The translations under genes were made by a program, and so were the position numbers. From assembly GCF_003334785.1 (NCBI RefSeq), contig NZ_QOWV01000020.1: 61,363 nucleotides of DNA; one strand, given 5' to 3'. Below the pieces are notes generated by a model. That model did not search any database. It worked only from the letters and a program-made list of their open reading frames with translations, and was not told where the DNA came from. This stretch comes from Escherichia coli. Lineage in GTDB: Bacteria > Pseudomonadota > Gammaproteobacteria > Enterobacterales > Enterobacteriaceae. Shown here one piece after another: positions 22,528 to 23,200 of the stretch (position 1 is its first letter; every line of letters starts with the position of its first letter).

Positions 22528-23165
22528 TGGCTGATATTTTTTTTGACATAATATTATCTCCTTCTACACAACAATTCGTTCCGTTAAGGAAAAAGATTGG
22601 TGTCACAAGTATTTATTTATGATTAATCAGAGGGTTTATGACAGAGAAAAGGATGTATATTTCTGAGTAAACATGTACAGGCCTATGGGGTGACTATTTA
22701 ATGAGTAAATGCCGAATGATTTTCGGGGTGATGATTATAACTTGAGGAAAAATCCCAGCGTGGTTTGAGTAGTGTACCTGAGTGATATTTGTGTTATGTA
22801 TGCATTGATTGCAGCAGAATAAATATAGTTCAGGCTAGTATAGTTTGTGGTAGCTATGAGAATATATAATCTATTTTACCTATAAAATAATTTATATGTA
22901 TGGGGTTGTTTTTTTTAGGTTGTTTGTCTGTGCTTTTATATTCTGGAGATGTGCCTTGTATATAGGATTGTTTGTTGGTTGTATTTTTTAATGTTGCACT
23001 GTTGTGAATTTTTATTTTGATATGATTATTTCTTTAGTATAAGGAGAGAAAGGAACGAGAAAGTTAAATCTATTTATCCTAATCGCAATTTCATTGTTTA
23101 AATAATCACTATGGATTAATATTTTTTGCGACTCTGCTGAGTTACTGGTTTTAACTAGTGGTGTA

Positions 23166-23192
23166 AAAGGGATACCTTTTCGGTATCCCTTT
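23166..23192 (-). terminator. Rho-independent terminator downstream of fyuA
   Basis: Inverted repeat AAAGGGATACC-TTTTC-GGTATCCCTTT just past the fyuA stop, with a T-run on the minus strand. Confidence 0.6.
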
Positions 23193-23200
23193 TACAATAA

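Follow-up and report, generated by a model that had tools for sequence, protein, structure and literature searches.

A truncated fyuA border of the yersiniabactin island is already known in Escherichia coli. Schubert et al. (2009; PMC2606025) described it as a ‘unique deletion of the fyuA border’, with the direct repeat lost, the adjacent backbone damaged and the island fixed, and reported spread of the island within the species via recombination of flanking DNA. The same work describes the island of ECOR31, located at asnV, as ICE-type and as having a conjugative arm of 35 kb. The repeat reported for such islands is the full 17-mer CCAGTCAGAGGAGCCAA (PMC2801613). Excision requires xis, formation of the circular intermediate requires int and the 17-bp repeats at both ends, and transfer requires virB1, mobB and oriT (PMC6202445). 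We follow the literature in calling the fyuA side the right border of the island, not the left.

Gene Order and Insertion Site of the Island

The window, i.e., the entire stretch of 61,363 nt that was analyzed (contig NZ_QOWV01000020.1, GCF_003334785.1), is the asn-tRNA cluster region of E. coli. Using ARAGORN on the window, four tRNA-Asn genes (9518–9593, 11927–12002, 13751–13826, and 53301–53376) and one tRNA-Ser were found. Based on collinearity with K-12 and on the RefSeq annotation of near-identical genomes, the order left of the island is cobUST, ldtA, asnV, nac, cbl, asnU, yeeO, asnW, yeeN, amn, shiA, a glycosyltransferase and yeeJ remnants. The yersiniabactin island follows on the minus strand, from fyuA to ybtS and int, and after it come asnT, mtfA and serU. 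The ybt locus is present according to open reading frames and annotations (ybtS, irp1, ybtU, ybtT, ybtE, and fyuA, the latter being the last gene). Two features frame the island:

53301–53376, minus strand: asnT, tRNA-Asn (ARAGORN; exact pattern match; K-12 mtfA–asnT collinearity)
23201–25222, minus strand: fyuA, yersiniabactin receptor gene, last intact island gene (ORF list; RefSeq annotation of identical DNA)

The asnT copy of tRNA-Asn is the site of the island: mtfA–asnT is collinear with K-12 up to the 3′ end of the tRNA, after which int and ybtS follow. The left 17-bp repeat (attL core, CCAGTCAGAGGAGCCAA) is intact and consists of the 3′ end of asnT plus one base (53300–53316). The three other copies, asnV, asnU and asnW, each hold an intact 16-nt target which is unoccupied in the window; in E. 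coli FAHZZU7007, an ICE-type island occupies asnV. For the first 5000 or so nucleotides of the window, strain 300709 (19330–25260) serves as an analogue, its fyuA and yeeJ fragment being 100% identical to those of the window; by this comparison, IS1, IS66 and IS4 fragments probably lie there, together with genes for a PfkB kinase and a DUF932 protein. This part would probably be another mosaic island, adjoining cobU.

The Spacer Beside fyuA

22550–23200, minus strand: AT-rich non-coding spacer, island-native, between fyuA and a 308-aa ORF (ICE identity; GC, ORF and Rfam scans)
23162–23196, minus strand: hairpin directly after the fyuA stop codon (inverted repeat with a 15-bp perfect stem; RNA fold)

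The first-pass annotation, made from the sequence alone, had described approximately 600 bp past fyuA as AT-rich and non-coding, and this description holds. The GC content is 0.29–0.36 over 22500–23200 compared to 0.55–0.60 in fyuA, the spacer contains no ORF of at least 50 aa (only four, of 26–43 aa), and neither an Rfam match nor a hit of a consensus scan for promoters and terminators was obtained in it. The hairpin (RNA fold −24.8 kcal/mol, z −6.5) is the probable terminator of fyuA. Compared to six ICE-type loci, the spacer is 98.8–99.6% identical and, relative to all six, 207 bp shorter, with the deletion at approximately 22903–22916. Since 13-nt direct repeats (GGGTKGTTTTTTT) flank the segment in the ICE copies, the comparison suggests a loss by slippage or short-homology deletion. 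Judged by its identity to these loci, the 650-bp AT-rich stretch is native island spacer rather than junk made by a deletion.

Searching contigs with the C-terminal 300 residues of FyuA yielded 12 loci, no Yersinia among them. At five enterobacterial loci with 91–99% identical FyuA (Salmonella diarizonae, Klebsiella michiganensis, K. oxytoca, K. indica and Raoultella ornithinolytica; L005–L009), DNA similarity ends with the fyuA stop codon or shortly past it, and only in S. diarizonae (to 23168) and Raoultella (to 23187) does it run partly into the hairpin. These five loci are uninformative about the fyuA border because homology ends right after the gene; from this comparison, their ybt loci sit in another downstream context. 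No asn repeat was found in their 10-kb flanks.

The Island Is Joined to yeeJ Within an Open Reading Frame

22196–22549, minus strand: remnant of the island 308-aa hypothetical ORF, codons 1–118 (translation; BLASTP; homopolymer comparison)
22195–22196, no strand: deletion junction between island DNA and yeeJ (three-way comparisons of window, K-12 and ICE, and of window, 23CRST044 and K-12)
21873–22195, minus strand: yeeJ fragment, K-12 codons 74–184, LysM region to start of the beta-domain (blastn to K-12; BLASTP; NCBIfam; alignment)
21799–22509, minus strand: chimeric ORF, 236 aa (BLASTP to the ICE ORF and to K-12 YeeJ; RefSeq annotation)
19752–21872, minus strand: further yeeJ remnants (blastn map to K-12; junction sequences; RefSeq ‘frameshifted; incomplete’)

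From 22189/22196 to 23306, the window is 98.8–99% identical to the DNA beside fyuA in the ICE-type island of FAHZZU7007, and this island origin is matched in five further ICE-type loci as well. The first ORF past fyuA encodes 308 aa when intact (WP_000039781.1; L004 47699–48625). In the window, island DNA stops abruptly inside this ORF, as expected from the earlier claim that a deletion had taken the attachment-site repeat and the 5′ end of yeeJ. At 22195/22196, island codon 118 is followed in frame by yeeJ codon 74, with approximately 1 bp of microhomology; on the minus strand, the reading changes from island ...CPVQQIIDTPL to yeeJ ...LRKLNQFRTF. No IS end or remnant is present at 22195/22196; island and yeeJ sequence abut directly.

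The ORF resulting from this junction is chimeric. Residues 1–105 of its 236-aa product equal residues 14–118 of the island ORF (103/106 identical, BLASTP), residues 106–213 equal K-12 YeeJ 74–184 (87% identity, BLASTP), and the tail after YeeJ 184 is out-of-frame sequence past a second deletion (21872/21873). NCBIfam inverse-autotransporter models match residues 105–213 of the product only. The first-pass annotation had noted that approximately 110 codons at the start of the ORF look atypical for yeeJ; indeed, these codons belong to the island ORF, the match to YeeJ begins only at residue 106, and ORF 21799–22527 is not identical to the native yeeJ 5′ end. RefSeq labels the chimeric ORF either ‘inverse autotransporter beta domain-containing protein’ or a frameshifted pseudogene. 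A homopolymer at 22537–22544 has eight bases in the window versus seven in the ICE copies, so that the native ATG (22549) is no longer in frame. With the native start displaced in this way, annotation pipelines either pick an internal ATG (22509) as the start of the chimeric ORF or mark the ORF as frameshifted. Paauw (2010; PMC2801613) reported that ECOR31 and E. hormaechei differ by 1 bp in this gene, the first hypothetical one past fyuA.

The family of the 308-aa ORF is widespread in Enterobacterales (343 matches, typically 304–308 aa, 50–70% identical; P0001–P0120), and in ICEKp-like elements it always lies directly upstream of an AlpA-type excisionase. The island ORF has no match in Pfam, NCBIfam or PHROG, and a contig scan with it gave chance pattern matches only.

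Remains of yeeJ

Aligned to K-12, window positions 53297–54425 correspond to mtfA–asnT up to four bases past the tRNA, and 21873–22195 correspond to yeeJ codons 73/74–184. The 588 bp between these two segments in K-12, i.e., the 370-bp asnT–yeeJ spacer and yeeJ codons 1–73, are without counterpart anywhere in the window, which agrees with the proposed loss of the yeeJ 5′ end. Presumably, the lost 5′ region would include promoter and signal peptide. The internal deletion at 21872/21873 comprises 3.69 kb, is out of frame and removes K-12 codons 185–1414. In the remnant at 19752–21872, one 282-bp repeat unit is absent and the 3′ end is divergent, with 19 bp replacing 453 bp of K-12. With the 5′ region and most of the body gone, yeeJ is, as read from this alignment, a pseudogene in the window.

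Within the yeeJ fragment, at approximately 22140–22150, a 9-bp in-frame deletion is found (K-12 FARGFDNVRQ, window FVR---NVRP). It is seen relative to K-12 and also relative to the HPI-positive strain 23CRST044, which has the same breakpoint between island and yeeJ. As strains with the same breakpoint differ by these 9 bp, the scar therefore diversified after it had formed. An exotic donor was considered for the fragment, which is about 93% identical to native alleles, and was dropped: the deficit is mostly the 9-bp gap plus approximately 4% substitutions, and we judge such an identity to be unremarkable for a variable adhesin gene.

Absence of the Right-End Repeat

According to the first-pass annotation, the 3′ repeat of tRNA-Asn is absent on the fyuA side. 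We searched the window for CCAGTCAGAGGAGCCA with up to three mismatches, and the only matches were the four tRNA-Asn genes (9518, 11927, 13811, and 53301). For the 17-mer CCAGTCAGAGGAGCCAA, the best match on both strands of 19700–23300 has 6 of 17 mismatches, and the best within 22196–23200 has 7 of 17. In block shuffles, six or fewer mismatches were reached in 294 of 300 trials; the best match in the window is thus at chance level. As a positive control, the repeat pattern detects the right-end repeat of the intact ICE-type island in FAHZZU7007 (L004 21761–21776), 56 bp from ldtA. Consequently, the claimed absence was confirmed, and even a degenerate asn repeat, allowing for mismatches, was not recognizable in 22.5–23.2 kb.

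Integrase and Mobility

52224–53139, minus strand: P4-like island integrase, pseudogene (ORFs in two frames; comparison with intact int; blastn breakpoint)

Compared to the intact 1263-bp gene (420 codons) of E. coli O104:H4 FDAARGOS_348, int has a 347-bp internal deletion and a frameshift, with the breakpoint at 53016/53017 (blastn). A genome that matches the window at 100% identity in the int region has a frameshifted int copy of 916 bp. The right arm of the ICE (26.5 kb in the reference ICE; AlpA-family gene, virB, mobBC/oriT) has no match anywhere in the window. Among the features of an intact element, the window thus lacks repeats at both ends (present at the left only, at asnT), a functional int, an AlpA-family xis/hef gene, and virB/mobBC/oriT.

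Under the published requirements for int, xis and two repeats, site-specific excision would not occur because the right repeat and xis are gone. The broken int is, as far as its reading frames tell, a second and independent block to excision. We infer that the island is locked in place and spreads vertically or by homologous recombination of flanking DNA.

Frequency of the Junction in Complete E. coli Genomes

fyuA is present in 2267 of 5426 complete E. coli genomes. The junction was found in 2046 of the 5426 (approximately 90% of the fyuA-positive genomes), nearly always with at least 99% identity. It was counted with a 1601-bp spanning query at a coverage of at least 80%; since only 69% of the query is on the island side, a match of this coverage therefore crosses the junction. 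The yeeJ deletion at 21872/21873 also lies inside this query, and full coverage occurs among the matches listed. The untruncated arm, consisting of the 3′ portion of the ORF and the AlpA-family gene, was detected in 175 genomes. The breakpoint of strain 23CRST044, whose yeeJ fragment is another allele, coincides exactly with that of the window.

Origin of the Truncated Border

The breakpoint, the absences and the identity of the junction across genomes are observed directly, and from them we infer an order of events. Integrase-made insertion into the 3′ end of tRNA-Asn would first leave 17-bp repeats at both ends. One illegitimate deletion, using approximately 1 bp of microhomology, would then have joined codon 118 of the first ORF past fyuA to yeeJ codon 74. 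It would have removed the remainder of the 308-aa ORF with the AlpA-type excisionase (xis/hef), the right arm of the ancestor, whatever its content (among ICE-type relatives, cargo and the virB/mob module for conjugation), the 17-bp repeat at the right end, the asnT–yeeJ spacer of 370 bp with the presumed yeeJ promoter, and yeeJ codons 1–73. That a single illegitimate deletion at the fyuA border fused the island ORF to yeeJ and thereby fixed the island is, in our assessment, very probable. We assume one event, given that the genomes share the breakpoint; had the history comprised two steps, for example loss of the right arm first and then a deletion into yeeJ, the end state would be the same. 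The ancestor could have been of the ICE type, in which case the 26.5 kb conjugation arm would also have been lost, or a short island of the Yersinia type.

Without any deletion, the right repeat might have decayed by point mutation, with the AT-rich stretch being the native asnT–yeeJ spacer. Beyond AT-richness, which is common in intergenic regions, nothing speaks for this, and the best 17-mer match of 6–7 mismatches does not differ from chance, the K-12 asnT–yeeJ spacer and yeeJ codons 1–73 have no match in the window, and the stretch is 99% identical to island DNA; we consider such a decay practically excluded. Just as hard to uphold is the idea that the approximately 110 atypical first codons are a divergent native yeeJ allele (allelic variation of an adhesin gene) rather than foreign sequence. 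yeeJ is variable, and what is retained of it reaches only about 93% identity to most native alleles. However, the codons in question are 97% (protein) and approximately 99% (DNA) identical to the ICE ORF adjoining fyuA and far from any yeeJ, no inverse-autotransporter model matches them, and genomes without the junction align from the yeeJ side of the breakpoint only (query positions 174–496).

An IS element could have caused the truncation by adjacent deletion, or the border could have arisen many times independently instead of once with subsequent spread. IS1 is inserted near the junction in some genomes (H1, H7), Yersinia islands have IS elements at this end (PMC2801613), and an IS-made deletion with later clean loss of the IS would fit. 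Nevertheless, 22195/22196 is free of any IS end or remnant, another, divergent HPI-positive strain has an unchanged breakpoint, at least 80% of the junction-spanning query is covered in all 2046 genomes counted, and published phylogenies favor a single origin followed by recombination (PMC2606025). We therefore regard IS involvement and multiple origins, taken together, as quite unlikely. The consequences of the single deletion may also be seen differently: the chimeric fusion may be an expressed protein with its own function, or the deletion may have been selected for silencing YeeJ while fixing yersiniabactin. In either case the junction would not be a mere inert scar, and many of the approximately 2000 genomes carrying the fusion have it annotated as a protein. 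The frameshift in the A8 homopolymer, the premature stop downstream and the recent common origin of the copies argue for a pseudogene, and we give a functional fusion or selected silencing hardly any credence.

Comparison With Known Islands

The HPI of Yersinia pestis and Y. pseudotuberculosis shares the ybt core and the insertion into an asn tRNA with the window. In Yersinia, the island has retained xis/hef together with the two 17-bp repeats and is able to excise, whereas the window is without xis/hef and the right repeat. A protein in nr labeled Y. pestis (WP_071239280.1) is 99% identical to the 308-aa ORF; looking up this exact protein led to a 1.6-kb contig only. int and xis of the Yersinia HPI are in common with ICEKp, without the conjugation genes (PMC6202445).

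With the ICE-type HPI, namely ICEEc1 of ECOR31 and ICEKp of Klebsiella (Schubert 2004 as cited in PMC2606025; Lam 2018, PMC6202445; Paauw 2010, PMC2801613), the window has in common the int-ybt-fyuA core, the spacer and codons 1–118 of the ORF at 99% identity. Intact ICEs, in contrast, continue with the remainder of the ORF, xis, virB type IV secretion, mobBC/oriT, cargo and the 17-bp repeat, all of which are absent in the window. In FAHZZU7007, the 308-aa ORF is followed by an AlpA-family gene (in the position of xis/hef), DUF2857, TraR, Hha and a virB type IV secretion set, and in the later part of the ICE by a coupling protein, MobC, ArdC, restriction-modification cargo and then the 17-bp repeat. 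A look-up of the AlpA protein retrieved ICE-type contexts only, and the order fyuA, spacer of approximately 870 bp, 308-aa ORF, AlpA-family gene, DUF2857, TraR, virB was conserved in 10 of 10 other contigs.

[quoted passage not shown] The window copy departs from this type in nothing essential, only by allele-level changes: the 347-bp int deletion, the extra homopolymer base and the 9 bp missing from the yeeJ fragment. The yersiniabactin island is of major importance for the fitness and virulence of extraintestinal E. coli, and the junction accounts for two of its properties: in most strains it is fixed at asnT, and homologous recombination, not excision and conjugation, is its route of spread. 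This conclusion was already published in 2009. To this known type, the present analysis adds the breakpoint at base level, the origin of the chimeric ORF which pipelines label as inverse autotransporter, and counts over 5426 complete genomes.
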